The notes: generated from the sequence alone by a model not told the origin. 64,000 nucleotides of DNA from Spirochaetaceae bacterium (GCA_015493635.1 WGCU01000026.1:7718-71717); one strand, 5' to 3'; positions 1-18,465 are shown, counted from the stretch's first letter. Made by a program: numbers and translations.

Positions 1-438
1 GATGTTCTGGGGTTTATTTTCCAGAATTTTAATCTTATTCCTGTCCTTAATGTCTATGAAAATATTGAATTCCCGCTGCTTCTCGGAAAAACAAGAGAAG
101 ATAAAAACAGGCGCAGGGAATGGATTACCCATCTTATGGAAGATGTAGGCCTCATAGAGTGGAAAACCCATAAACCAAATGAACTTTCCGGGGGGCAGCG
201 GCAGAGAGTTGCCATAGCGAGGGCTCTTGTTACAAAACCTGCCATTGTCCTGGCTGATGAACCAACTGCCAACCTTGACTCAAAAACAGGTGAAAATATC
301 ATAGAGATGATGAAAAAAATGAACAAAGAGTTTGATACAACGTTTATTTTCTCCACCCATGACAAGACTATTGTGGATATTGCAGATCATGTTATTCATC
401 TGAAAGACGGCCTCGTTGAATCAAATTCCAGGGGATAG
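1..438 (+). CDS. ABC transporter ATP-binding protein, MacB/LolD-like (5' truncated by window edge)
   Basis: Frame 1 is open from base 1. It carries the ABC signature LSGGQRQRVAIARAL, the Walker B motif IVLADEPTANLD and an H-loop (FSTHD). It lies directly upstream of two FtsX-type permeases. Confidence 0.85.
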   Translation, partial: DVLGFIFQNFNLIPVLNVYENIEFPLLLGKTREDKNRRREWITHLMEDVGLIEWKTHKPNELSGGQRQRVAIARALVTKPAIVLADEPTANLDSKTGENIIEMMKKMNKEFDTTFIFSTHDKTIVDIADHVIHLKDGLVESNSRG

Positions 439-440
439 GT

Positions 441-1916
441 ATGGAAAATGTTATTTTAAAAATTGCCTATAGAAATATATGGAAGCATAAAATTAAAACA
501 TTGATAATCGGTATTCTGGTAGCATTGGGAATCCTTATTCTTGTTGTGGGGAATTCCTTCATGGACAGTGCAGCGGCAGGTATGAGAAAAACCTATATTG
601 AAAATTTTACCGGTGATTTTATCATTACCTCAGGAGCAATGAAAAACCCATCCATGTTTATGGACGGTATTATGGAGGACAGGGATTCTGCTCTCCCAAT
701 AATTCCCAGGGAACCTGACATTGAAAAACACCTTAAAACGGTAAAGGGAGTGGCGGCTTTTAATCCTCAGATAGCCGGCGCGGTTGCCATCAAGCATGGT
801 GATGATAACGGATTTGCTCTTATTTTCAGTTTTGACCCGGTTAAATACCAGGAAGTGTTTAAAAATAATATTGAACTTGTTTCCGGAAGTTTTTTAAAGG
901 AAGGGCAGGAGGGGATTGTTCTTTCTGATGAAACGGTAAAGAGAATGAGAGAATCGGGGGGTGAAAAGGTTGCTGTGGGAGATAAAGTACTCCTTACCGG
1001 TATTAATAATATAACCGGAACCAAGATCAGGGAAGTTACCGTCCGGGGAATATTCAAATTCAAGAACGAAGCTCCCCAGCTTAAAGTGCTCTCATTTCTT
1101 GATGTCAACAACATGAGAATAATTAATGGTATGCTGAAAAATACAGAGGTGTCTGCCAATCTTTCCACAGAAGAAAAAGCTCTTCTTGGATCGGTTAACG
1201 AGAATTCTCTCTTCGGGGAGTCAGACGGAGGACTTGTTACCGATTCCAGCAGCAGTTCCTCCGCACCCGTTGATTATCTTTCCATTCTGGGGGATACATC
1301 AAAACGAAATTTATACCGTGAGACAGATCCCAACGCGTGGCACTACATTGTGGTAAAACTTGATAACGGTGTACGTCCAGGAAAGGTAATACGCCAGCTC
1401 AATACCTGGTTTACTGCACAGGGGATCGACGCAAAGGCTTACAGCTGGCTGCTTGGAGCAGGAGCCATCGGGAAATTGTCTAATACTCTCAAAATTGTTT
1501 TTAATCTTCTCATTCTCATTATAGCGGTTGTAGGAGTTATCATTATTATGAATACACTCGTTATATCAGTTACAGAACGGATTGGAGAAATTGGTACCAT
1601 GAGAGCCATTGGAGCAAAGAAGTCATTTGTACGGCGGATGATTATGCTGGAAACCCTCATGATTACAGTAATATTCGGATTTATCGGAGCTTTGCTGGGG
1701 ATTGTTATTACCTGGATTCTCGGGGCTATAGGATTTACCGCGACCAATACGTTCCTGCAGGTAATTATGGGAGGCAAGGTTTTCCACCCCGTTGTATCGG
1801 TGAGTGCAGTTGTTCTCTCCCTCGTTATTATCGGCGCTGTTGGAATTCTTGCCAGCCTGTATCCGGTTTCAGTTGCGTTGAAAATAAATCCGGTTAAAGC
1901 AATGGGGGAAAATTAG
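441..1916 (+). CDS. ABC transporter permease, FtsX/MacB family, with large periplasmic domain
   Basis: 491 aa. N-terminal TM helix, a ~250 aa periplasmic region, then a C-terminal 3-4 TM FtsX-like block (LILIIAVVGVIIIMNTLVISVTERIGEIGTMRAIGA). Adjacent to the ABC ATPase. Confidence 0.8.
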   Translation: MENVILKIAYRNIWKHKIKTLIIGILVALGILILVVGNSFMDSAAAGMRKTYIENFTGDFIITSGAMKNPSMFMDGIMEDRDSALPIIPREPDIEKHLKTVKGVAAFNPQIAGAVAIKHGDDNGFALIFSFDPVKYQEVFKNNIELVSGSFLKEGQEGIVLSDETVKRMRESGGEKVAVGDKVLLTGINNITGTKIREVTVRGIFKFKNEAPQLKVLSFLDVNNMRIINGMLKNTEVSANLSTEEKALLGSVNENSLFGESDGGLVTDSSSSSSAPVDYLSILGDTSKRNLYRETDPNAWHYIVVKLDNGVRPGKVIRQLNTWFTAQGIDAKAYSWLLGAGAIGKLSNTLKIVFNLLILIIAVVGVIIIMNTLVISVTERIGEIGTMRAIGAKKSFVRRMIMLETLMITVIFGFIGALLGIVITWILGAIGFTATNTFLQVIMGGKVFHPVVSVSAVVLSLVIIGAVGILASLYPVSVALKINPVKAMGEN

Positions 1917-1918
1917 AG

Positions 1919-3256
1919 ATGATGAATATAATAAAAATAGCTTTTAGAAATATCACCCGGCAGAAAAAGAGGAGTATACTTCTCGGCAGTGCTGTAGCCT
2001 TCGGAGTTCTGATAATTATCCTTCTTAACGGATTTACGGCAGGCTTAAAAGAAACCATGAAAGAAAACTTTACCTCCTTAATGGGAGGGCATGTATATGT
2101 AAATGGAAAAGTAGTGCTCCCCAGCGGAAAAATAGTAAACATGATAGGGGACAGGGATATACTGGACAAGGCTCTTTCACCTATTGCCGATGAAATAGCG
2201 GAGGTGCACATAAGGGCCCAGTCCGGCAGGAGCGAAATAATTTTCGGTTCAAAAAGTACATCTCTCCTTATATATGGTGTGAACTGGAATGATGAAAAGC
2301 TTCTCAAAAAAACATTGACCGTTCTTGATGGTTCGTTTAAGGCGCTATCAGATCCAAAGGCTATTGTTTTGCCAAAAAAAATAGCGGATAAACTTCAGGT
2401 CAGAGCGGGAGATTCTGTCCTGGTGCGTCTTGATACGGTGACAGGACAGCGGAATGTAGGTGATTTTACCGTCGGAGCAATTACAAGTGATCCTGGGAGT
2501 TTTTCTTTTATCAGCGCCGGATACGCTAATATTACGTATCTTGGTGAACTTCTCGGTCTTAAGCCCGGCGGGTATCAGTATATGAATCTGTACCTGAAGG
2601 ATATCAATCGTATGGATGTTGTAGCAAAAAAGCTGAGAGATGAGTTAAGGAAGACTGCTCTTTTAGAGGAAGATACTCCCGAAGATACCAATAATGAAAC
2701 CCATCAGAGGAGTATGGGGTTTATGATGGGAGGGTCAACGACGGCAGTAAAGCCCTGGAAAGGAACAAAATTTTCAGTAACAACCCTTAATGATGTTATG
2801 GCCCCTGTTTTACAGATGATCAGAATACTTAATATGGTCTCATTAACGCTCTTTATTATCCTTCTTACCATAACAATGGTCGGGCTCCTGAATACATTCC
2901 GTATGGTCCTTATAGAACGGACAAGGGAGATTGGAACAATACGGGCCATAGGGATGCAGCGAAAGGATGTCCGGAATATATTTTTCTTCGAAGCACTGTT
3001 CCTTTCTCTGGCAGGTGCAGCGGCCGGGCTTGTTCTTGCCCTTATCGGCATGGCGGTAGGAGGCGCGGTTACCTTTTCCGCGAACTCCAATATGGGTATT
3101 TTCCTTCTTAACCGGCATATACAGTTTATTGCATCGGTTCCCGGAATCCTGCTGATAATTGTCATCCTTTTACTGATGACTCTTGTTGCAGTATATCTTC
3201 CCGCACGGAGAGCAGCTCGTTTGAAAGTAGCTGATGCTCTGCGGACACAATACTAA
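1919..3256 (+). CDS. ABC transporter permease, FtsX/MacB family (second paralog)
   Basis: 445 aa with the same architecture (N-terminal TM, periplasmic domain, C-terminal FtsX block ERTREIGTIRAIGM). It starts 3 nt after the previous permease. Confidence 0.8.
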   Translation: MMNIIKIAFRNITRQKKRSILLGSAVAFGVLIIILLNGFTAGLKETMKENFTSLMGGHVYVNGKVVLPSGKIVNMIGDRDILDKALSPIADEIAEVHIRAQSGRSEIIFGSKSTSLLIYGVNWNDEKLLKKTLTVLDGSFKALSDPKAIVLPKKIADKLQVRAGDSVLVRLDTVTGQRNVGDFTVGAITSDPGSFSFISAGYANITYLGELLGLKPGGYQYMNLYLKDINRMDVVAKKLRDELRKTALLEEDTPEDTNNETHQRSMGFMMGGSTTAVKPWKGTKFSVTTLNDVMAPVLQMIRILNMVSLTLFIILLTITMVGLLNTFRMVLIERTREIGTIRAIGMQRKDVRNIFFFEALFLSLAGAAAGLVLALIGMAVGGAVTFSANSNMGIFLLNRHIQFIASVPGILLIIVILLLMTLVAVYLPARRAARLKVADALRTQY

Positions 3257-3273
3257 TAGATGGAGATGATAAA

Positions 3274-4032
3274 ATGAAAAAAAAGATTGGATTATTAACA
3301 GCGGCTTTGCTGCTTACGGGAGTACTCTCGGCAGGAGCTTTAACAACAGCCAAAGCGGAAGCGATTCTTGGAGATCTCGATGCGTCGAGGAACTTCAGCA
3401 ATACCGATTTTTCCGCGGTGATGACAATGGTAACAGAAGACCCTGAAAAGGGGATAGACAAGATAAAAGTGCAGCAGTTCAGGCGCGATGGTAAAGACAC
3501 GTTCCTTATGCTCTTTCTCGAACCGGAATCCAAGAAGGGGCAGGGGTATTTACGGATCAATGATAACCTGTGGTTCTATGATCCTGAAAGCAGGAAGTTT
3601 AATCATACTTCCATGAAAGATTCCTTTGGAGGGACCGATGCGAAGCATTCTGATTTCAGAATTTCAACACTGAAAGAAGATTACAATGTAAAAACGGTTG
3701 CGGATGGCAAACTCGGCCGGTTCAGTGTGTACATCATGGATCTGAAAGCAAAGAATTCGGAAGTAACGTATCCCCGTCTGAAGTTATGGATAACCCGGGA
3801 AGGACACCTGCTCTTGAAGGCAGAGGACTACAGTGCCACGGACAGACTGATGCGGACGAGCCTTTTCCCGAAGTACGCGAAGGTAAAGAACCGGTACATA
3901 GCTACCATAATGATTTTTGTGGATGAGCTGGTTAAAGGAAGGAAAACACAGATAAGTATTGCCAATATTTCCACCAAGAAACTTCCCGATACCATCTTTA
4001 CCAAGTCGTATGTAGAACGGGTTAACAGGTAG
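3274..4032 (+). CDS. LolA-like periplasmic protein (outer-membrane lipoprotein-sorting protein family, PF17131-like) with signal peptide
   Basis: N-terminal signal peptide (MKKKIGLLTAALLLTGVLSAGA). The core FLEPESKKGQGYLRINDNLWFYDPESRKFNHTSMKDSFGGTDAKHSDF matches the LolA-like family pattern (P..kG..L......W.Y.P..R.....s...sF.GSDF). Confidence 0.6.
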   Translation: MKKKIGLLTAALLLTGVLSAGALTTAKAEAILGDLDASRNFSNTDFSAVMTMVTEDPEKGIDKIKVQQFRRDGKDTFLMLFLEPESKKGQGYLRINDNLWFYDPESRKFNHTSMKDSFGGTDAKHSDFRISTLKEDYNVKTVADGKLGRFSVYIMDLKAKNSEVTYPRLKLWITREGHLLLKAEDYSATDRLMRTSLFPKYAKVKNRYIATIMIFVDELVKGRKTQISIANISTKKLPDTIFTKSYVERVNR

Positions 4033-4040
4033 GTGCGGAA

Positions 4041-5360
4041 ATGAAACTATATAAAACGGTATTATTATGTTTGGCAGGAACGGTACTATGGGCTGGCAGC
4101 ACGTTTGCTGACAGTATAAACACCAATGATCTTTTCGGAAGCAGCTCGGGGGCTCTTGTGGAAGAACCCTCCGGGAATACTGATAAAACGGATCTTTCGT
4201 CTGACCTCCTGACCTCAAAGGCAGGGGTAACAATAGGGGGCGCTTATCATTTTAAGGCAGCAGCCGCTTTGAAGGAAAATGATCTGGAAAATCCTTCTTT
4301 CGATTCCATGGATGATTCTTTTTCCATAGATCTTGGAACAACCCTGTCCTTTGATGCCCGTCCGGATGATACGATCCGGGTCCTGGGTAAGGTGGTTATT
4401 GCATATCCCTTTACGGGGGGAACGTTTTCCGATGTCTTTCATGTGACAGAGCTCTTTTCCGATTTTAATATTGACGACAAGGTGTTTTTCCGTGCAGGGA
4501 AAAGCACCATCAACTGGGGAGTGGGCTATTTTTTCAGTCCTGCGGACCTTCTTAATGTGAGCAAAATAGATCCTGAAGATCCTGATGCTGAACTGGAAGG
4601 ACCGGTTTCTGTAAAAATCAATGTTCCGGTTGGAATCAATAATCTCTATCTGTACGTTATAGCACCGGAGGGTATTATTTCTGCTTCAGAACTTGCGCTT
4701 GCTCCCAAAGCGGAGTTTGTTATCGGTGACAGCGAGTTTGGTCTGGGTGCTTACTATCAGAAAGACCATGTTCCAGCAGGGATGGTTACCGTAACGTCAG
4801 CTCTGGGAGATGTTTCTCTCTTCGGTGAAGGCGTTGTAACCTACGGATCCGATAAAACCTTTGTAAAGCAGGACGGCATGTCCTATGCTCTCGTTACGGA
4901 TGATGATACCGTTTTCTTTAAGGGAACTGCGGGTTTTAGGTACTCCTGGAGCGATGATCTTTCCAATTTTTCGTTTAATGTTTCCGGGCAGTATCTTTTT
5001 AACGGTGAAGGGTACGAAAATAATGATCAGGATTTTGTAACTGCCAACAGACTGATAATTATGGGAAGCGGACTTGTTTCTGCGTCTGATATTGCACAGA
5101 CCGGCCGGCATTACGGCGCCGGAAACTTCAGCTGGAATGAAATGTTCCAGAGTGATTTTACGTTCAGTATGTTTTGGCTGGGAAATCTCTCTGACGGATC
5201 AGGCATGATGAAACCTTCGCTTTCCTATACAGGGTTCGATGATATTGATATTTCACTGAGTCTCCCCTATAGTTATGGTGATATCGGTGATGAATATACT
5301 CCCATGGGAGATTCTGTGTCCGCGTCTTTAACCTTTTCTCTTGGAGGAACTGCCTTCTAA
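4041..5360 (+). CDS. putative outer-membrane beta-barrel protein (hypothetical), signal peptide, C-terminal aromatic residue
   Basis: 439 aa. Signal peptide MKLYKTVLLCLAGTVLWAGSTFA. Ser/Thr/Gly/Asp/Phe-rich with alternating beta-strand-like segments. Ends in ...LTFSLGGTAF (terminal Phe, typical of an OMP C-terminal strand). Tightly linked to the ABC/LolA-like genes. Confidence 0.5.
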   Translation: MKLYKTVLLCLAGTVLWAGSTFADSINTNDLFGSSSGALVEEPSGNTDKTDLSSDLLTSKAGVTIGGAYHFKAAAALKENDLENPSFDSMDDSFSIDLGTTLSFDARPDDTIRVLGKVVIAYPFTGGTFSDVFHVTELFSDFNIDDKVFFRAGKSTINWGVGYFFSPADLLNVSKIDPEDPDAELEGPVSVKINVPVGINNLYLYVIAPEGIISASELALAPKAEFVIGDSEFGLGAYYQKDHVPAGMVTVTSALGDVSLFGEGVVTYGSDKTFVKQDGMSYALVTDDDTVFFKGTAGFRYSWSDDLSNFSFNVSGQYLFNGEGYENNDQDFVTANRLIIMGSGLVSASDIAQTGRHYGAGNFSWNEMFQSDFTFSMFWLGNLSDGSGMMKPSLSYTGFDDIDISLSLPYSYGDIGDEYTPMGDSVSASLTFSLGGTAF

Positions 5361-6061
5361 TGGATGGACGGGTATTGATTATTGAGGATGAAATAGAGCT
5401 GGGTGAACTTATTCAGCTTTTTCTGAAAAAAGACGGTATTCAATCTGATCTATATCCTTCTGCGGAAGAGGGGCTCATCATCCTTAAGAAGCAGGTGTAT
5501 GACCTTATTATCCTTGATATCAATCTTCCCGGGATGGATGGTTTTGAATTTCTGCAGATTCTGCGCAGAAATTCTGCTGTCGGCGTTATCATCCTTTCTG
5601 CGCGTGAAGCGGATGAGGATATCGTCCTGGGACTTGGCCTCGGGGCAGATGAGTTTGTCACGAAACCCTTTGCTCCGAAGGTCCTTGTTGCCAGGGTACG
5701 GGCGCTGCTCCGACGTTTTAAGGCGCAGAAGGGAAATGTTTCGGGCAGAATTTATTTCGGCCCCTTTGAAATGGATATTGGCGGGTATTCAGTAGTGAAG
5801 GAGGGGGACAGAGTCCCTCTTTCCACTAAGGAGTTTGAGGTTTTGCGGTTTCTCATCGAAAACGCGGGAAAAGTATTTACCCCCCCTGAAATTTATCAGG
5901 CTGTCTGGAAACAGGAATTTGGAGATGTAACCTCTGTTGCCGTGTATATACAGCGGCTTCGAAAAAAACTTGAACCTGATCCGGCTGCTCCTGAACTCCT
6001 TATTACTGTCAGAGGGAAAGGGTATCTCTGTAATAAAAAAATGGTAACCTATGAGTCTTAA
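5360..6061 (+). CDS. two-component response regulator, OmpR/winged-helix family
   Basis: REC domain (LIIEDE...DLIILDINLPGMDG...KPF) followed by an OmpR-type DNA-binding domain. The ATG overlaps the upstream stop (TAATG). Confidence 0.9.
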   Translation: MDGRVLIIEDEIELGELIQLFLKKDGIQSDLYPSAEEGLIILKKQVYDLIILDINLPGMDGFEFLQILRRNSAVGVIILSAREADEDIVLGLGLGADEFVTKPFAPKVLVARVRALLRRFKAQKGNVSGRIYFGPFEMDIGGYSVVKEGDRVPLSTKEFEVLRFLIENAGKVFTPPEIYQAVWKQEFGDVTSVAVYIQRLRKKLEPDPAAPELLITVRGKGYLCNKKMVTYES

Positions 6062-7352
6062 AACACGGTTTGTTCTCCTTGTTGTAGGTTCTGTGCTTAT
6101 TCCAAACATTATTATCATGATGATTGTCGGACTCTCTTTCGGCGGGTTTAATAATATCTATGCGCTTCATAAGCAGATGAAAACATACTATACTGTCAAT
6201 AAAATGATCCGCCGTCCGGTAGATAAGAAAGAGTTTTTCACGTATTTACAATCATCTTCTCCTGTAGACTATTACATTATCAGCAGTGACAGGACGTTCC
6301 TTACCTCTTCAACCGGTACCAATGATTTAGCGAATGCACTGCAGAAAGGCAGGACGTTTACAGTACGGGAAGTTGCATTTACCGGTAACAGCAGTGCACT
6401 CCTTTTCCTCCATTTGCCGGCGCTTGAACATTTTGCTCTTGCCAGGCAGACCCCTTTTCAGCTTGTTGCTCCTCTGGTGCTTCTTTCGGTCCTGTCACTC
6501 CTTTCTCTGATTGTAATCCGGTCCATAAACAGCTCCCTTAAAAAGATAGAAGAAGCGACACGAAAGGTTGCAGAAGGGAACTATGACTTTGAACTTCCGG
6601 TACGGGGGAATGATTCCATAGCGTCCCTTTCACGCTCATTCAATATCATGATTGAAAAAGTCAGGGAGGAATACTCCCGCCGGGCACGGTTTTTTATGGG
6701 AGTTTCTCATGATCTTAAAACTCCTCTGGCTTCCATAAGCGGTTACGCGGACGCAATTCTCGAAGGGTATGCGGACAGCAAGGAATCTCTCGATAAGTAC
6801 GCAGGAATAATCAAGGACAAATCCGGACTTCTGCTGGACAGGGTATATCACCTTATTGATTTTGTGAAACTGGAAACTGGAGAGTGGAAGATATCTTTTC
6901 AGGATACTCCTTTAAAGAAGTTCCTCTTGGGAATTATTGATGCTGCTTCGGTTGATGCGGAGCTCTATCACTATACGTTTGAATCGAAAATTTTTATTCC
7001 GGATAGTGTTGTTGTTCCCATGGATACAGGGCTTGTTCGGCGCAGTTTTGATAATATTATTCATAATGCATTCCGGTATGCTGAGGAAGGAACCCGAATA
7101 AAAATTACAGCAGAGGAAGGAAATGGGGGAATTACAATTTCCATAGCAAACCGGGGAAAGGGAATACCGGAAGAAGATCTCCACTATATCTTTGAGCCTT
7201 TTTACCGGGGGTCCTCAACCCGGAATGAGGACGGTTTTGGTCTGGGACTTGCAAATGTTGCTTCTGTTATTAAATCTCACGGCTGGGAAATCTCTGTAAC
7301 TTCAGTACCTGGCGGAATAACTACTTTTACCATTTTCGTTCCGTTATCATAA
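6051..7352 (+). CDS. sensor histidine kinase (TM sensor, HAMP, HisKA, HATPase_c)
   Basis: Two TM segments, HAMP (SLKKIEEATRKVAEGNYDFELP), H-box (FFMGVSHDLKTPLASISGYAD) and G-boxes (GFGLGLANVAS). Overlaps the RR gene by 11 nt. Confidence 0.9.
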   Translation: MSLKTRFVLLVVGSVLIPNIIIMMIVGLSFGGFNNIYALHKQMKTYYTVNKMIRRPVDKKEFFTYLQSSSPVDYYIISSDRTFLTSSTGTNDLANALQKGRTFTVREVAFTGNSSALLFLHLPALEHFALARQTPFQLVAPLVLLSVLSLLSLIVIRSINSSLKKIEEATRKVAEGNYDFELPVRGNDSIASLSRSFNIMIEKVREEYSRRARFFMGVSHDLKTPLASISGYADAILEGYADSKESLDKYAGIIKDKSGLLLDRVYHLIDFVKLETGEWKISFQDTPLKKFLLGIIDAASVDAELYHYTFESKIFIPDSVVVPMDTGLVRRSFDNIIHNAFRYAEEGTRIKITAEEGNGGITISIANRGKGIPEEDLHYIFEPFYRGSSTRNEDGFGLGLANVASVIKSHGWEISVTSVPGGITTFTIFVPLS

Positions 7353-7416: not shown

Positions 7417-8910
7417 TTACGGAACAATCCCGAGTATTACATCGGTGCCCTGCTTATTTACTTTGAAAATAAGTTCGCCGCTGGTGTCAGCGTTAATAAT
7501 TTTATAAAAATCCATAACGCTGTTAATTTTCTTTTTATTTATTTCTTTTATTATATCACCGCTCCGGAGGCCCGCCTTAAAAGCTGATGTATTCTGCTCA
7601 ACGGCGCCGATCATTACCTTTCCAATATTAGAGGGAAGGTTAAGTTTTTTGCGGATATCCTTTGTAATCCCTACCACGGTAACACCAGGCCACAGAGACT
7701 TCGCATTTTTCTGAATTGCTGCTTCATCTTTTCTGGTTGTGATCCGTACTCTCAGGGTTACCGGCCGTTTGTACCGGATAACCTTGAAGGTGTATGTTTT
7801 TCCGGGAACCAGATTTCCAACCACATGAAGCAGTTCATTGGCATCTTTTATATTGGTTGTATCAACAGCTGTTATAAAATCGCCCGGTTTTAGACCGCCC
7901 TTCCATGCGGGGGAATCCTTGTATACGTTGAATACAAAAGCTCCCTTTTTGTGTTTTAACCCCATATCGCTGATGATCCCTTCTGAAGGATCGCTCATTG
8001 ATATTCCAAGCCAGCCGTATTGAACCTTTCCGGTAGCGATTAACTGATCGATAACCTTTTTCGCATTATTTATCGGAATGGCAAATCCAAGGCCAATACT
8101 TCCCCCGGACTGGGAAGCGATCCAGGTATTCATACCAATTACTTCCCCTTTGATATTTACAAGGGGTCCTCCGGAGTTTCCGGGGTTTATGGCAGCATCT
8201 GTCTGTATATAATCCGTAAAACTAGTGCCGAGCCGGTCGTTTGCTTTTCTGCCTACTGCGCTTATTATTCCCGAAGTAATGGTGGAGTCAAAACCAAGAG
8301 GGTTTCCTACTGCAAACGTTATATCGCCAGGCTGAACGGTGCTTGAATCACCCAGTACCGCGATAGGTACATTTTCTTTTGTTTCAAACTTTACGAGGGC
8401 AACATCTTTTCTTGGATCTTTTCCGACAAGTTTTGCATCGAAAACTCTTCCATCGTACAGGTGAATGGTTATTTTATCAGCATTACCGGCAACGTGGTTG
8501 TTCGTCAAAACGTACACGGTTTTCCCTGTTTTTTTAACGATGATTCCTGATCCGAGAGCGGCACTTTTAAACTCCTGCATCTTCGGTTTTTGCTGCTGCT
8601 GTTGGTTCGGAGAATTGAAGAAAAAATCAAAAGGGGAAGGCATAACAGGGACTGCCCTTTTGACTACTGTTTCAACGTTGATCGTTACAACGACAGGAAG
8701 AACCTTTTTTGCGATCATCCTGTTTTCATTCTGCATGGCTTGCAATGTATTCCCCTGGGAAACATTGTAGCCCTGGTATCTGTAGGGGGTTGTTTCAGCG
8801 GTAACGATACCAGCTGTTCCGATTAATAAAAATGTAATAAGAATAAGCAATGTGAATTTCTTTGTTTTCATTTTTCGCCTCCATGTGCTTTTGTTATATG
8901 AATAATACAC
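7417..8910 (-). CDS. htrA: periplasmic serine endoprotease DegP/HtrA (trypsin domain + 2 PDZ)
   Basis: Catalytic triad context: TNNHVAGNADKITIH, ...DVALVKF..., GNSGGPLVNIKGEVIGMN. Two PDZ-like C-terminal segments. Strong RBS GGAGGCGAAAAATG. Confidence 0.9.
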   Translation of the reverse strand: MYYSYNKSTWRRKMKTKKFTLLILITFLLIGTAGIVTAETTPYRYQGYNVSQGNTLQAMQNENRMIAKKVLPVVVTINVETVVKRAVPVMPSPFDFFFNSPNQQQQQKPKMQEFKSAALGSGIIVKKTGKTVYVLTNNHVAGNADKITIHLYDGRVFDAKLVGKDPRKDVALVKFETKENVPIAVLGDSSTVQPGDITFAVGNPLGFDSTITSGIISAVGRKANDRLGTSFTDYIQTDAAINPGNSGGPLVNIKGEVIGMNTWIASQSGGSIGLGFAIPINNAKKVIDQLIATGKVQYGWLGISMSDPSEGIISDMGLKHKKGAFVFNVYKDSPAWKGGLKPGDFITAVDTTNIKDANELLHVVGNLVPGKTYTFKVIRYKRPVTLRVRITTRKDEAAIQKNAKSLWPGVTVVGITKDIRKKLNLPSNIGKVMIGAVEQNTSAFKAGLRSGDIIKEINKKKINSVMDFYKIINADTSGELIFKVNKQGTDVILGIVP

Positions 8911-8940
8911 AAAGAAGCTTTCTGAAACCTTTCCGAACCA

Positions 8941-10407
8941 TTACAGTTTTGTAATGATTTTATTCTCGGCAAGAGGGAATGAAAGAGAAAAAACAGTACC
9001 GCTTCCTTTTCGGGAAGTAACCGCTACCGTTCCCCCGTGTGCGGAAACAACAGCTTTTACAAGGCTTAAACCGAGCCCCATCCCCGGAATTTCTTTTTTG
9101 GAAGGACTCCGGTACAATCTGTCCCAGATAAAGGGGATCTCCTCTTCATCAATCCCCGGCCCGTAATCAGTAACTGATATACTGCAGTTTTCTGCTGTTT
9201 CCTGGACAGCAACCGTTATTTTGCTGTTTCCGTCAGAATACTTGACTGCGTTGTCCAGAATATTCCCGACAGCCTGCCTGAAGCGGACAGGGTCAGCAGG
9301 AATGGAGATGGTTTCATCATCACAGAGGAGTTGTATCTGCAGGCCCTTTTCTTCACCTATATACGTGTATATATCAATGAGATCTGTGAGAACTTTTTTT
9401 ACCTCGATATTCTGCAGGTTCAGATGCAGTATCCCCGATTCCGCTTCCGATATATCCATCATGGTATTAAGCATGGACAGGATTCTCTCCGATTCTTCTA
9501 ACGATGATGAAAGAGCCTCTGTAAGTCTCTTGTTATTATCCGGATCCTGAAGCGCTAGTTCAGCAAGACCTCTCATCCGTGTCATAGGTGTTCTCAGGTC
9601 ATGCGCCACGGAATCAAAGGTTCCTTTCATCTGGTGTATAAGACTTTCAATTCGTGTAAGCATGGTATTGAAGAGCATGATGATTTCATCAAGATCGTCT
9701 CTTCCTTTTTGCCGGTCAACCCGTTTTGAAAAATCTCCTGTTTCCACTATATTTTTCAGTATTGAACTGAGATTATGCAGAGGTTTTAATGCTCTTCCAC
9801 TGAAAAAAGCCCCTGATATAATGCTGAATGTCACAAGAAGGATGAGGAGAAGGATGAAATTTCTCTGATATATATTTAAAAAGTACAACCGCCTTGCGGT
9901 ACTCATGCCTATTTGCAGTATGTATTTATCGGAAAGTCTGACGGTGCTTATTTCAAGTTTGAACGCATTCGTTTTACTGGAAAGGATGATCTCCTGTGAA
10001 AAATCTGAGAGTGGCAGTTGTGCCAGCTGCTCAATATTAAAATTCTTCCAGTTTTCCGGGTATTTTAGAAAGAGTGTTTTGTTTTTACTGTCTGCTATAC
10101 GGATGAAAAAGGCTCTGTCCCCGTAGAGAAAAGAGTCTACCTTAATTTCTTTTGCAATTGCGTCAATGCCCCCAGATTGAAAAACAGCCCAGTAGTTTAA
10201 AAGTCGCCTTCTCATGTTTCCCGTGTCTTCCGCTTTCATGGATGAGTAGAGGGATAAAAATGAGAATGTAAAGAGGACAAGGGAAGAAATGATAAATATA
10301 ACTGAAAAGAGGAACGTCAGTCTGAAATGAATTTTTTTAAAGTTTAAACTAATCTTCTTTAAGAACATACCCGACTCCCCGGATAGTATGGAGAAGCTTT
10401 TTATCAA
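8941..10407 (-). CDS. sensor histidine kinase (2 TM, HAMP, HisKA, HATPase_c)
   Basis: H-box SVAHDLRTPMTRMRGLAE. ATPase motifs NILDNAVKYS, DYGPGI, GMGLGLSLVKAVV. Overlaps the upstream RR by 59 nt. Confidence 0.9.
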   Translation of the reverse strand: MIKSFSILSGESGMFLKKISLNFKKIHFRLTFLFSVIFIISSLVLFTFSFLSLYSSMKAEDTGNMRRRLLNYWAVFQSGGIDAIAKEIKVDSFLYGDRAFFIRIADSKNKTLFLKYPENWKNFNIEQLAQLPLSDFSQEIILSSKTNAFKLEISTVRLSDKYILQIGMSTARRLYFLNIYQRNFILLLILLVTFSIISGAFFSGRALKPLHNLSSILKNIVETGDFSKRVDRQKGRDDLDEIIMLFNTMLTRIESLIHQMKGTFDSVAHDLRTPMTRMRGLAELALQDPDNNKRLTEALSSSLEESERILSMLNTMMDISEAESGILHLNLQNIEVKKVLTDLIDIYTYIGEEKGLQIQLLCDDETISIPADPVRFRQAVGNILDNAVKYSDGNSKITVAVQETAENCSISVTDYGPGIDEEEIPFIWDRLYRSPSKKEIPGMGLGLSLVKAVVSAHGGTVAVTSRKGSGTVFSLSFPLAENKIITKL

Positions 10408-11023
10408 AATCTTTATCTATTTTACTCCGTAATCTCGAAACAAGGACATCGACTATGTTTGTTTGAGGATCAAAGTCATAGTGCCAGATTTTTTCCATAA
10501 TAAGTGTTTTTGAAAGGACTCTTCCTGTGTTTCTTAACAGATATTCCAGCAGAGCGAATTCTTTAGGCTGCAGGTCTATTTCCTGTCCTGCACGTTCAAC
10601 CCTGTGGGACAGAAGTGAGAGAGATAAATCCGCGCAGGATAAAACGGTTGATTCAGGTACCGCGGAGGATCGGCGAATGAGAGCCTGTATCCGTACAAGC
10701 AGCTCTGAAAAGGAAAAAGGTTTTGTAAGATAGTCATCCCCGCCTTTCTGGAGCCCGCGGATTTTATCGTCAACATCCCGCTTGGCACTGAGAATAATGA
10801 TGGGAACCTGTTTTCTTCTGGCACGGACTTTTTCAATTATAGTGAGTCCGTCCATACCCGGAAGCATAATGTCAACTATTGCCGCATCGTATGAACCGGT
10901 AAGGAGAAGCGCAAACCCCTCCTCACCGTCTGAAGCGGTATCAGTTATAAATCCCGCTTCTTCCAGACCTTTAGAAATAAAAGATCTGATTCCCTCATCA
11001 TCTTCTATAACAAGTATTTTCAT
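10349..11023 (-). CDS. two-component response regulator, OmpR family
   Basis: REC (MKILVIEDDEGIR...DAAIVDIMLPGMDG...KPF) plus a winged-helix output domain (LLEYLLRNTGRVLSKTLIMEKIW). Confidence 0.9.
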   Translation of the reverse strand: MKILVIEDDEGIRSFISKGLEEAGFITDTASDGEEGFALLLTGSYDAAIVDIMLPGMDGLTIIEKVRARRKQVPIIILSAKRDVDDKIRGLQKGGDDYLTKPFSFSELLVRIQALIRRSSAVPESTVLSCADLSLSLLSHRVERAGQEIDLQPKEFALLEYLLRNTGRVLSKTLIMEKIWHYDFDPQTNIVDVLVSRLRSKIDKDFDKKLLHTIRGVGYVLKED

Positions 11024-16732: not shown

Positions 16733-17599
16733 ATGAAGATAGCAATTGCCAGCGGGAAAGGCGGAACGGGGAAAACAACCCTCTCTACCAATCTCGCTGC
16801 TTTTTTAGCGGAGAAAGAACATGTTGTTCTTACCGATCTGGATGTGGAAGAGCCGAACTCCGGACTCTTTATTAAAGGGACCCTGAAACATTCTGAATCA
16901 AAATACAAGATGATACCTGAATGGGACTCCGCTTACTGTAATCTCTGCGGGATATGTCAGGAGGTATGCAATTTTAACGCTGTTTTAAAAATGGGGAAAA
17001 ACATTATGGTTTTTCCCGAATTATGCCATGGCTGTTATGCATGTTCTGAGCTCTGTCCAAAAAATTCTCTTCCCATGAAAGAAAAGCCTATGGGGGAATT
17101 AAAACATTTTGAAGCTGCCGGTCTTTCTTTTATTGAGAGCAAGCTTCTTATAGGAGAGGAACAGGCTGTTCCTTTGATAAAGCAGACGATAGATTATGTG
17201 GATGAAAATTTTCCGGAAGAAATCATAAAAATATACGACTCTCCTCCGGGAACATCTTGTCCTGTTATTGAAGCAACAAAACATGCTGATATTGTTATTC
17301 TTATCACTGAACCGACTCCTTTCGGGTTTCACGATCTTACATTGGCCGTTGAAACGATCAGGGAGCTGAAAAAAGAATTTGTTGTTGTTGTAAACAGGTA
17401 TGGAATCGGAGATGACAGTGTGGAAAAATATTGTAAAGCGGAAGGGATTACCATTATCGGAAAAATACCAAATGACCGGAAAGTAGCGGAAGTTTATGCA
17501 AAAGGTGATCTTCTTTATCCGGCTCTGCCGTCTGTAAAAAAAGTTATAGAAAAAATCGCGCTTTTTATTCAGGGAGAACGGGGAGACTCAGGACGATGA
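16733..17599 (+). CDS. MinD/Mrp-superfamily P-loop ATPase with inserted 2x[4Fe-4S] ferredoxin domain (COG1149-type)
   Basis: Deviant Walker A IASGKGGTGKTT. Two ferredoxin motifs: CNLCGICQEVC and CHGCYACSELCP. ParA/MinD-like C-terminal half. Confidence 0.85.
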   Translation: MKIAIASGKGGTGKTTLSTNLAAFLAEKEHVVLTDLDVEEPNSGLFIKGTLKHSESKYKMIPEWDSAYCNLCGICQEVCNFNAVLKMGKNIMVFPELCHGCYACSELCPKNSLPMKEKPMGELKHFEAAGLSFIESKLLIGEEQAVPLIKQTIDYVDENFPEEIIKIYDSPPGTSCPVIEATKHADIVILITEPTPFGFHDLTLAVETIRELKKEFVVVVNRYGIGDDSVEKYCKAEGITIIGKIPNDRKVAEVYAKGDLLYPALPSVKKVIEKIALFIQGERGDSGR

Positions 17600-18465
17600 A
17601 AGAGATTGTTGTTATTTCAGGGAAAGGCGGAACAGGAAAAACATCCATAACAGCTTCTTTTGCCGTTTTGGGAGGGGCAAATCTTCTTGTAGCGGACTGT
17701 GATGTCGATGCTGCTGATATGCACCTGCTTCTGGAACCGGATTTTGCCGGAGATGAAGATTTTTACAGCGGAGAGGTTGCCGAAATTGATCAGGAAACAT
17801 GTATTCAGTGCGGGAAGTGTGCCGAAGTATGCAGGTTTGATGCAATCCCTGTTGTAGATGGCAAGTATACTGTTGATCCTCTATCCTGTGAGGGATGCGG
17901 ATACTGTGCAAGAATATGTCCGGTAAAGGCGATTACAAACTCGGTTCAGAGAGTAGGTAATCTGTATACCTCATCAATCCGTACCGGGACAAAAATGATT
18001 CACGCAAAATTGGGAATTGGAAACGAAAATTCCGGTAAGCTGGTTGCAAAGGTAAAAAATGACGCGAAAGCTCTCGCTGAAAAAGAACAGAAGAATTATA
18101 TTCTTGTTGACGGTTCTCCGGGAGTTGGGTGCCCTGTTGTTTCTTCTCTTTCCGGTGCAACATTTGTTGTTCTTGTAACGGAACCGACTGTTTCCGGTGT
18201 TCATGATTTAATAAGGGTTTATGAACTGGTAAAAAAGTTTAAAATAAACGCCGGCTGCATTATAAATAAGGCGGATATCAATCCGGAAAGAAACAGGGAA
18301 ATAAAAGACTTTATAAGGAAGGAATCTATTACACTTCTTGCGGAGATTCCATATAATGAAAATTTCACAAAAGCGATGACCATGGGAAAGACAATTGTAG
18401 AGTTTGATAGTATATTGAAGAAAATAATTGTGGATTCCTGGGAAAAAATAAAACAAAAAGCTTAA
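17596..18465 (+). CDS. MinD/Mrp-superfamily P-loop ATPase with inserted 2x[4Fe-4S] ferredoxin domain (second paralog)
   Basis: ISGKGGTGKTS Walker A. Ferredoxin motifs CIQCGKCAEVC and CEGCGYCARICP. The ATG overlaps the upstream stop by 4 nt (ATGA). Confidence 0.85.
   Translation: MKEIVVISGKGGTGKTSITASFAVLGGANLLVADCDVDAADMHLLLEPDFAGDEDFYSGEVAEIDQETCIQCGKCAEVCRFDAIPVVDGKYTVDPLSCEGCGYCARICPVKAITNSVQRVGNLYTSSIRTGTKMIHAKLGIGNENSGKLVAKVKNDAKALAEKEQKNYILVDGSPGVGCPVVSSLSGATFVVLVTEPTVSGVHDLIRVYELVKKFKINAGCIINKADINPERNREIKDFIRKESITLLAEIPYNENFTKAMTMGKTIVEFDSILKKIIVDSWEKIKQKA

Follow-up and report, generated by a model that had tools for sequence, protein, structure and literature searches.

How greasy molecules other than lipopolysaccharide and lipoproteins are delivered to the outer membrane is largely unsolved. 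The closest studied system to the one described here is AmeABCD of Castellaniella defragrans, a set of DUF1302, DUF1329, BNR and HAE3-type resistance-nodulation-division (RND) proteins, which is induced by monoterpenes, confers monoterpene tolerance and lowers Nile Red accumulation (PMC6394551). In the current study, a seven-gene locus was analysed that occupies the start (positions 1-7352) of a 64,000-nucleotide stretch from a Spirochaetaceae bacterium (GCA_015493635.1, WGCU01000026.1:7718-71717); the whole stretch is referred to as the window. The locus encodes an ATP-binding cassette (ABC) ATPase, two different FtsX-type permeases (P1 and P2), a LolA-like periplasmic protein, a predicted outer-membrane beta-barrel and an OmpR-type two-component system. 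On balance, and with some reserve, we read it as an envelope-spanning exporter in which a carrier relays hydrophobic or lipid-like cargo. It offers a clean, strictly conserved candidate for an extractor-carrier-barrel route, which has so far been discussed for RND-driven relatives only.

Clusters of the DUF1302-DUF1329-BNR-RND type, AmeABCD and those of Shewanella and Pseudomonas among them, are tied to hydrophobic compounds. In several Gammaproteobacteria, DUF1302 and DUF1329 proteins show cofitness with a BNR protein as well as an RND exporter, and the export of a cell-envelope component was proposed (bioRxiv 10.1101/072470). Pseudomonas putida with mutated DUF1302/DUF1329 genes shows defects on Tween 20 and on butyl stearate (bioRxiv 10.1101/2020.07.04.188060). 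A DUF1302-DUF1329 complex was predicted by AlphaFold-Multimer (interface predicted template-modelling score, ipTM, 0.84), and the DUF1302 model was likened to an Occ channel and to AlgE (PMC13499233). In Thalassolituus, n-C28 alkane induces a fusion of MMPL and LolA-like proteins and the porin-like protein next to it (PMC6304351).

Like AmeABCD, the spirochete locus combines a LolA-superfamily protein of the periplasm with an energised exporter in the inner membrane and lacks a classical membrane-fusion protein (MFP) and TolC; its predicted outer-membrane barrel is DUF1302-like. The motor of AmeABCD, however, is a proton-driven RND protein, whereas that of the spirochete locus is an ATP-driven, presumably heterodimeric, ABC transporter of the MacB/FtsX type. 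AmeABCD has BNR (COG4447) and HAE3 RND proteins, whereas the locus contains neither an MMPL gene nor a BNR/Ycf48-like propeller gene. Its barrel is 439 aa long, compared with about 600 aa for the AmeABCD type, and is missed by a direct Pfam DUF1302 search. Moreover, the locus includes a two-component system, unlike AmeABCD. The aryl-polyene cluster of E. coli is similar in that ApeL (LolA-like) and ApeM (RND) were proposed to place a specialised lipid, the aryl-polyene lipid, in the outer membrane; it differs in its RND motor, in the DUF3261 LolB-like membrane protein (ApeN) that replaces the barrel, and in being embedded in a biosynthetic cluster (PMC8253772). No description of an ABC-driven version with a DUF1302-like barrel was found in the literature, and the locus would be a new ABC-driven variant of the widespread DUF1302/LolA-like export systems.

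Components of the locus

An earlier note on this DNA, made from the sequence alone, had described the locus and suggested a single operon. The coordinates and strand of all seven open reading frames (ORFs) agree exactly with that description, and its parts list was found to be correct by Pfam searches and an AlphaFold2 model. The genes are co-directional, and their spacing, as read from the sequence, is compatible with one operon, as that note had proposed. The TAG codons of the ATPase and P1 genes are each followed after 2 nt by the ATG of the next gene (P1 and P2, respectively), the TAA of P2 after 17 nt by the ATG of the LolA-like gene, and the TAG of the latter after 8 nt by the ATG of the barrel gene. 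The sequence TAATG is common to the barrel stop and the start of the response regulator (RR) gene, which overlaps the histidine kinase (HK) gene by 11 nt. Promoter and terminator consensus scans, otherwise uninformative, revealed no convincing internal terminator.

The complete ATPase gene (229 aa) starts 251 nt 5' of the window on an overlapping public contig (L082), where it is preceded by a GGAGG ribosome-binding site and lies 93 nt behind an EamA gene. The fragment within the window matched Pfam ABC_tran (E 1.3e-17), and its best partial matches in NCBIfam were LolD, DevA, DarD and YbbA-type ATPases. Both permeases have the domains of type VII ABC transporters, namely a C-terminal FtsX membrane domain (PF02687, cutoff 25.5 bits; P1: 1.1e-19, 71.1 bits, residues 356-484; P2: 1.3e-16, 61.1 bits) and a large periplasmic MacB core domain (MacB_PCD, PF12704, cutoff 27 bits; P1: 1.4e-10, 42.2 bits, residues 26-211; P2: 4e-11, 44.0 bits, residues 24-240). 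Mechanotransmission by transporters of this type is established for MacB and LolCDE. The P1 and P2 proteins of the window are 24% identical, and throughout the related loci they fall into two separate orthologue groups, with P1 always before P2. Since the two are always distinguishable, in constant order and only this similar, they would appear to stem from an old duplication and are presumed to be partners in an obligate heterodimer.

In its permeases with FtsX and MacB core domains and its LolD/MacB-type ATPase, the transporter resembles MacAB-TolC. In contrast to the homodimeric permease, MFP and TolC duct of that pump, the spirochete locus has two different permeases and a separate ATPase polypeptide, and neither an MFP nor TolC was found. 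Their absence, already noted from the sequence, held wherever it was looked into: Pfam revealed no MFP (MacA/HlyD) or TolC in the operon, the genes 5' of the locus on contig L082 encode MatE and EamA transporters, and no HlyD/MFP or TolC family was detected among 20 further window ORFs (12.7-42.8 kb). In 58 related loci, neither an MFP nor TolC was a conserved neighbour, and no flanking gene was conserved; clustering of flanking ORFs found no gene shared by >10 loci, although this clustering is noisy because high-GC genomes yield spurious ORFs.

The LolA-like protein (252 aa) was assigned by its profile hidden Markov model match to PF17131 (LolA_like), as had been supposed, with an E value of 9e-45 and 153 bits against a gathering cutoff of 30, spanning the profile's full length (1-184). 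It also matched the structure 3BUU (NE2245, LolA superfamily; E 6.9e-21) and, further, 4Z48 and 3BK5. Canonical LolA (PF03548) was not matched at E<=0.01, PF17131 and a weak MucB_RseB match alone being returned, and NCBIfam gave no match for this protein or for the 439-aa protein. The N-terminal signal-like sequence has no cysteine, and the lack of a lipobox cysteine indicates that the carrier is not a lipoprotein. A link to TP0789 of Treponema pallidum, the namesake of PF17131, was dropped, as the literature search on it gave a proteome listing alone, and no claim on pathogenic treponemes is made.

The 439-aa protein had been put forward as an outer-membrane barrel, and as a prediction this stands. 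The protein begins with a hydrophobic signal-like segment and ends in ...GGTAF, with a terminal Phe. An AlphaFold2 model built with a 60-sequence family alignment was an all-beta barrel of about 18-20 strands rather than a soluble or non-barrel protein (predicted local distance difference test, pLDDT, 84.5; predicted template-modelling score, pTM, 0.79). It comprises a signal-like helix, a disordered stretch (residues 21-58), strands, a non-strand segment (155-188), a helical loop (327-343) and the terminal Phe. The most conserved segment of the family, residues 151-188 (RAGKxTINWGVGYFFSPADLL...DPEDPDAELEGP), is not a strand. Foldseek searches of the Protein Data Bank (PDB) returned outer-membrane barrels alone, with OccAB1, OmpM1, OccK8, ChiP and AlgE first (E 1e-12 to 1e-10, TM 0.43-0.49). 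The model thus resembles the 18-stranded AlgE/Occ channels, as published for the DUF1302 fold (PMC13499233).

Twenty-two of the 60 family members matched Pfam DUF1302 (PF06980) at E<=1, weakly (best 1.3e-5), and one protein 50% identical to the window barrel (P0027) reached 27.5 bits, against a gathering cutoff of 23.2, over the GK..WGVGYFFSP region. The description that fits the 439-aa protein best is that of a short and divergent barrel of DUF1302-like type. More than 600 homologues were present in a protein collection, virtually all of them unnamed and from spirochete metagenome-assembled genomes (MAGs). In a profile search of 1.84 billion representatives, 1,816 matched at E<=1e-3 and 461 did so at E<=1e-30; at the 50% identity level, the family thus comprises about 1,800 representatives. 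For spirochetes, this is a further family of predicted outer-membrane barrels, so far without any annotation.

Residues 21-58 of the barrel (window 4101-4214) are disordered in the model, yet hold two conserved motifs, D/E-x-LFG (invariant F32) and LL-T/S (invariant L57). This N-terminal extension, which is missing from the Vibrio-type barrels described below, may serve as a peptide on which the carrier or the permeases dock.

Conservation of the locus and its counterparts in other phyla

One genome per species was scanned (257 relatives, 80 loci kept), and the seven window proteins were mapped onto the kept loci. The order ATPase-P1-P2-LolA-like-barrel was retained in 45 of the 46 loci with enough upstream DNA (44 in the automated count, in which L038 was a scoring artefact), and the LolA-like gene lay directly 5' of the barrel gene in all 73 loci (73/73). 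Conservation of this order extends over barrels 36-73% identical to the window protein and over MAGs labelled Spirochaetota and Bacillota. Such an arrangement goes far beyond what chance would produce. The claim that the cluster is conserved as a unit was therefore upheld for the five transport genes.

The sole exception, L032, is an orphan pair of LolA-like and barrel genes without ABC genes. Such a pair could be taken to mean that the genes of the locus are mere neighbours, the barrel being a general porin and the LolA-like protein being independent of the ABC transporter. This is extremely unlikely, as it is contradicted by the five-gene order in 45/46 loci, by the tight or overlapping junctions and by the recurrence of the arrangement in other phyla. 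The orphan pair (L032:8643-11404; OZ244929.1, a Spirochaetia MAG of 7.4 Mb) lies amid PRTase-CE, ORC-CDC6-like and AAA_15 genes in a defence-island-like setting, and all five genes are additionally present as a set elsewhere in that genome (L038). Within the window, the module was found only once.

Full five-gene modules were also present in MAGs labelled Limnochordia, Bacillota, Clostridia and 'Ca. Darwinibacter acetoxidans' (L030, L037, L044, L054, L056, L059, L060, L063, L068, L070, L072, L075, L077 and L078). These MAGs may be of diderm Firmicutes with an outer membrane, or they may be mis-binned. One further locus (L081, DYPP01000074.1) came from a MAG labelled Treponema denticola, the source of which is a sulfidic-cave sample. 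The best 120 relatives of its barrel were environmental hypothetical proteins only, with no T. pallidum, cultured pathogen or cultured oral treponeme among them, which makes the species label look doubtful.

The earlier note had suggested a machine specific to the spirochete envelope, which is not the case: the same module architecture, with a candidate barrel, occurs in Alpha- and Gammaproteobacteria and, with an MMPL motor, in Bacteroidota, and the barrel family is present in MAGs labelled Limnochordia/Bacillota too. The LolA-like protein served as a tblastn query against plasmid and chromid records with annotation, which led to the non-spirochete loci. In Aliiroseovarius, genes for an ABC ATPase, an FtsX permease, an 'outer membrane lipoprotein-sorting protein' (PF17131) and a 480-aa hypothetical protein are accompanied by an RR and a HAMP kinase, with ketoacyl-synthase-like genes within ~1.5 kb downstream. 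Vibrio sp. HDW18 (L084) has an ABC protein, a permease, a PF17131 protein and a 414-aa hypothetical protein, then an HK and a LytTR regulator. In E. coli O157:H7 EDL933, the order is two ketoacyl synthases, a hypothetical protein, an ABC ATPase, a hypothetical protein, a permease, a PF17131 protein, a 462-aa hypothetical protein, a malonyltransferase and ycdU. In Prevotella nigrescens, an MMPL transporter replaces the ABC part and is accompanied by a PF17131 protein and an annotated DUF1302 protein (435 aa). The Prevotella carrier matches both PF17131 (4e-65) and DUF1329 (7e-17), which links these two carrier families.

The E. coli record (L086, NZ_CP124742.1, 144215-158730) is labelled as a plasmid, and its genes look chromosomal. 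With its ketoacyl synthases and acyl carrier protein (ACP) S-malonyltransferase, the cluster has the look of a lipid or polyketide cluster equipped with an export module.

The candidate barrels of Aliiroseovarius, Vibrio and E. coli are very divergent and carry signal sequences, and three of the four proteins, including the Prevotella DUF1302 protein, have a terminal Phe, that of E. coli ending in Leu. An AlphaFold2 model of the Vibrio 414-aa protein was a barrel (pLDDT 82) with AlgE as its best PDB match, and its layout was as in the spirochete protein: five strands, a conserved GKxxxxWGVGY loop, more strands and a helical loop, with about five to six strand segments at the end. The Vibrio and spirochete barrel profiles aligned colinearly in hhalign over 279 columns, centred on GKxxxxWGVGY..P.D (E 1.7e-4, probability 50%), which is moderate support. 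These results suggest that the Vibrio barrel is probably homologous to the spirochete barrel. For the E. coli and Aliiroseovarius candidates, homology is only positional. Vibrio-type barrels are abundant in Vibrio, including V. cholerae (P0247-P0366; one cluster comprises 645 member sequences), and are annotated as hypothetical, a few records wrongly as beta-lactamase or lipoprotein.

These counterparts bear on a comparison with LolCDE-LolA, which the locus resembles in its pair of paralogous FtsX-type permeases, its single ATPase and its soluble LolA-fold carrier, implying a periplasmic hand-off. The locus could be a second, paralogous Lol-type pathway, in which a subset of lipoproteins would be extracted, carried and then inserted or surface-flipped by the barrel, replacing the missing LolB. 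Spirochetes have no LolB, the two different permeases recall LolC and LolE, and lolCE is, like LolD, among the best partial matches in NCBIfam. Moreover, a comparable idea exists for the Borrelia lp38 cluster BBJ23-BBJ29, which encodes a MacB-like transporter, a LolA-like protein and an Omp85-type barrel (PMC13078400). However, the lolCE model (TIGR02212) gave 59.5 bits for P1 and 73.5 bits for P2 against an equivalog cutoff of 362, so that P2 is no LolCE equivalog, and the LolD model gave 145.9 bits against 307.75, for a query that was the 145-aa ATPase fragment only. The carrier belongs to PF17131 and not to LolA, and the acceptor is an integral barrel instead of the LolB lipoprotein. The same pair of carrier and barrel is found with MMPL/RND motors, in fatty-acid/polyketide clusters or in hydrocarbon-responsive systems, and E. 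coli and Vibrio have homologous modules in addition to a complete Lol system. A Lol-type pathway is thus unlikely, and lipoprotein sorting, one of the functions that the earlier note had considered, is the least favoured cargo.

The Borrelia cluster differs from the spirochete locus in its Omp85-family barrel, its single permease and its extra chaperone-like genes. In tblastn searches of the plasmid collection, no Borrelia plasmid was matched by the window carrier or the window barrel; orthology was rejected on these grounds, and BBJ23-BBJ29 is regarded as analogous.

Proposed relay and its cargo

From these components, we infer which proteins touch, in which direction transport runs, what kind of cargo is moved and what part the two-component system plays, as follows. 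A P1-P2 heterodimer with its ATPase would act at the periplasmic face of the inner membrane and extract from it a molecule that is hydrophobic or amphiphilic. The soluble, non-lipidated PF17131 carrier would receive this cargo and shield it in a hydrophobic cavity, and would then deliver it to, or dock on, the 18-strand-class DUF1302/AlgE-like barrel, which would pass it into or across the outer membrane. Such a relay would replace the continuous MFP-TolC duct of MacAB-type pumps. In this lineage, the OmpR-type two-component system probably controls expression in answer to a signal from the envelope or the cargo.

We favour a cargo that is lipid-like or a small hydrophobic compound, rather than lipoproteins, because the transporter fails the Lol equivalog tests, because the pair of carrier and barrel also serves MMPL/RND motors, and because related modules either have fatty-acid/polyketide genes as neighbours or are responsive to terpenes and alkanes.

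Several observations weigh against an exporter of this kind. The spirochete locus is not flanked by genes for lipid or polyketide biosynthesis, which means that the cargo class is carried over from systems in other bacteria. Pfam gave no match for the 439-aa window protein. The sequence link to the Vibrio barrels is weak at the hhalign probability given above and insignificant for the single E. coli and Aliiroseovarius sequences, and comparisons of the spirochete profile with single proteobacterial and Prevotella barrel sequences were uninformative. An adjacent two-component system is missing from 40 of the 69 related loci, the RR and HK genes lying 3' of the barrel gene in the other 29. Finally, several phenotypes of DUF1302/DUF1329 or MMPL-LolA-like systems concern growth on hydrophobic substrates, for which uptake is a possible explanation.

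In the case of uptake, the barrel would admit a hydrophobic nutrient and the LolA-like protein would ferry it inward. The defects of the P. putida mutants on Tween 20 and butyl stearate (bioRxiv 10.1101/2020.07.04.188060) and the induction of the Thalassolituus fusion and its porin-like neighbour on n-C28 (PMC6304351) would fit this direction. The best fold matches of the barrel include Occ/OprD uptake channels. However, import is not known for type VII ABC transporters (MacB, LolCDE, FtsEX) or for MMPL/RND proteins, and the locus contains neither a substrate-binding protein nor catabolic genes. Uptake is therefore considered very unlikely, and export by a carrier relay remains the preferred explanation.

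The occurrence of the pair of carrier and barrel with either ABC or MMPL motors in several phyla argues for a portable outer module. We tentatively raise the possibility that an FtsX-type ABC transporter, a PF17131 carrier and a DUF1302-like barrel constitute a distinct and phylogenetically broad class of chaperone-relay exporters that move lipids or other hydrophobic molecules through the envelope, with an outer module interchangeable between ABC and MMPL/RND motors. Such a class might include systems of V. cholerae, E. coli O157:H7, free-living spirochetes and the bacteria behind the MAGs labelled Limnochordia/Bacillota. Since tractable organisms (Vibrio cholerae and E. coli O157:H7) hold versions of the module, the hypothesis is directly testable.

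Gene layout, two-component system and neighbouring genes

The positions of the seven genes and of an inverted repeat behind them are given in table 1. The repeat is preceded by A5 on its 5' side on the + strand, which corresponds to T5 after the stem on the - strand, and it is likely to mark the end of the operon. It was missed by a simple terminator scan because of the length of its loop.

Table 1. Features of the export locus and its 3' boundary in the window.
Feature	Position	Strand	Remarks
ABC ATPase, C-terminal 145 aa	1-438	+	cut by window start; Pfam ABC_tran
Permease P1, 491 aa	441-1916	+	Pfam FtsX + MacB_PCD; type VII ABC (MacB/FtsX fold)
Permease P2, 445 aa	1919-3256	+	Pfam FtsX + MacB_PCD; P1 paralogue
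LolA-like periplasmic protein, 252 aa	3274-4032	+	PF17131 / TP_0789-like family
Predicted outer-membrane beta-barrel, 439 aa	4041-5360	+	AlphaFold2 model; divergent DUF1302-like, AlgE/OprD-like fold
OmpR-family response regulator (RR), 233 aa	5360-6061	+	Pfam Response_reg + Trans_reg_C
Sensor histidine kinase (HK), 433 aa	6051-7352	+	Pfam HAMP + HisKA + HATPase_c
Perfect 12-bp inverted repeat GCAATGCAGGGT ... ACCCTGCATTGC, 12-nt loop	7358-7393		between convergent HK and htrA genes

The RR (Response_reg, 3.8e-26; Trans_reg_C, 8.2e-24) and the HK, which has two predicted transmembrane segments around an extracytoplasmic stretch of ~100 aa followed by HAMP-HisKA-HATPase, form a system of the OmpR/EnvZ type, with all Pfam domains above their cutoffs. 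Neither protein reached an NCBIfam equivalog cutoff, so no named orthologue can be given. The two-component system had been regarded as dedicated to the locus. This agrees with its position in the same operon here; it is no constant part of the module, as the 29/69 related loci and the HK with LytTR regulator of Vibrio indicate, and it is a lineage-specific addition.

Co-inheritance of the two-component system with the module was considered and rejected. The window HK is 24% identical to the Aliiroseovarius HK, over the cytoplasmic core only, and is thus no closer to it than to the unrelated kinase encoded nearby in the window, with which it shares 27% identity over the cytoplasmic cores. Since the kinases beside the module are not specifically related and that of Vibrio is paired with a LytTR regulator, two-component systems were seemingly recruited more than once, independently.

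The two-component system also raises the question of whether the locus is a pump that can be induced to remove toxic compounds, either hydrophobic xenobiotics or antimicrobial peptides, with the kinase and regulator sensing the toxin or envelope damage and turning on the exporter in the manner of BceRS-BceAB or the induced AmeABCD. Its location within the same operon, the recurrence of different types of two-component system beside the module in Aliiroseovarius and Vibrio, and the neighbouring genes for efflux-type MatE/EamA transporters, an HtrA protease and another envelope-type two-component system would all suit such a role, as would the monoterpene tolerance provided by AmeABCD (PMC6394551). 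However, a pump of this kind would be a sub-case of the carrier-relay exporter rather than a different machine, and most of the related loci (40/69) have no adjacent two-component system to act as a sensor. Moreover, the E. coli and Aliiroseovarius versions adjoin biosynthetic genes, which points to an endogenous product. Detoxification is accordingly rather unlikely as the main function, and export of a hydrophobic or lipid-like cargo by the relay is preferred.

The genes 3' of the locus (window 7417-11023) are convergent with it on the minus strand and encode an HtrA/DegP-type protease with two PDZ domains and the second OmpR/HAMP-kinase two-component system. This neighbourhood may be related to envelope stress. 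Further downstream, at window 16733-18465, lie two adjacent paralogous genes for CbiA/ParA-type P-loop NTPases with inserted 4Fe-4S ferredoxin domains, which are unrelated to the export locus.

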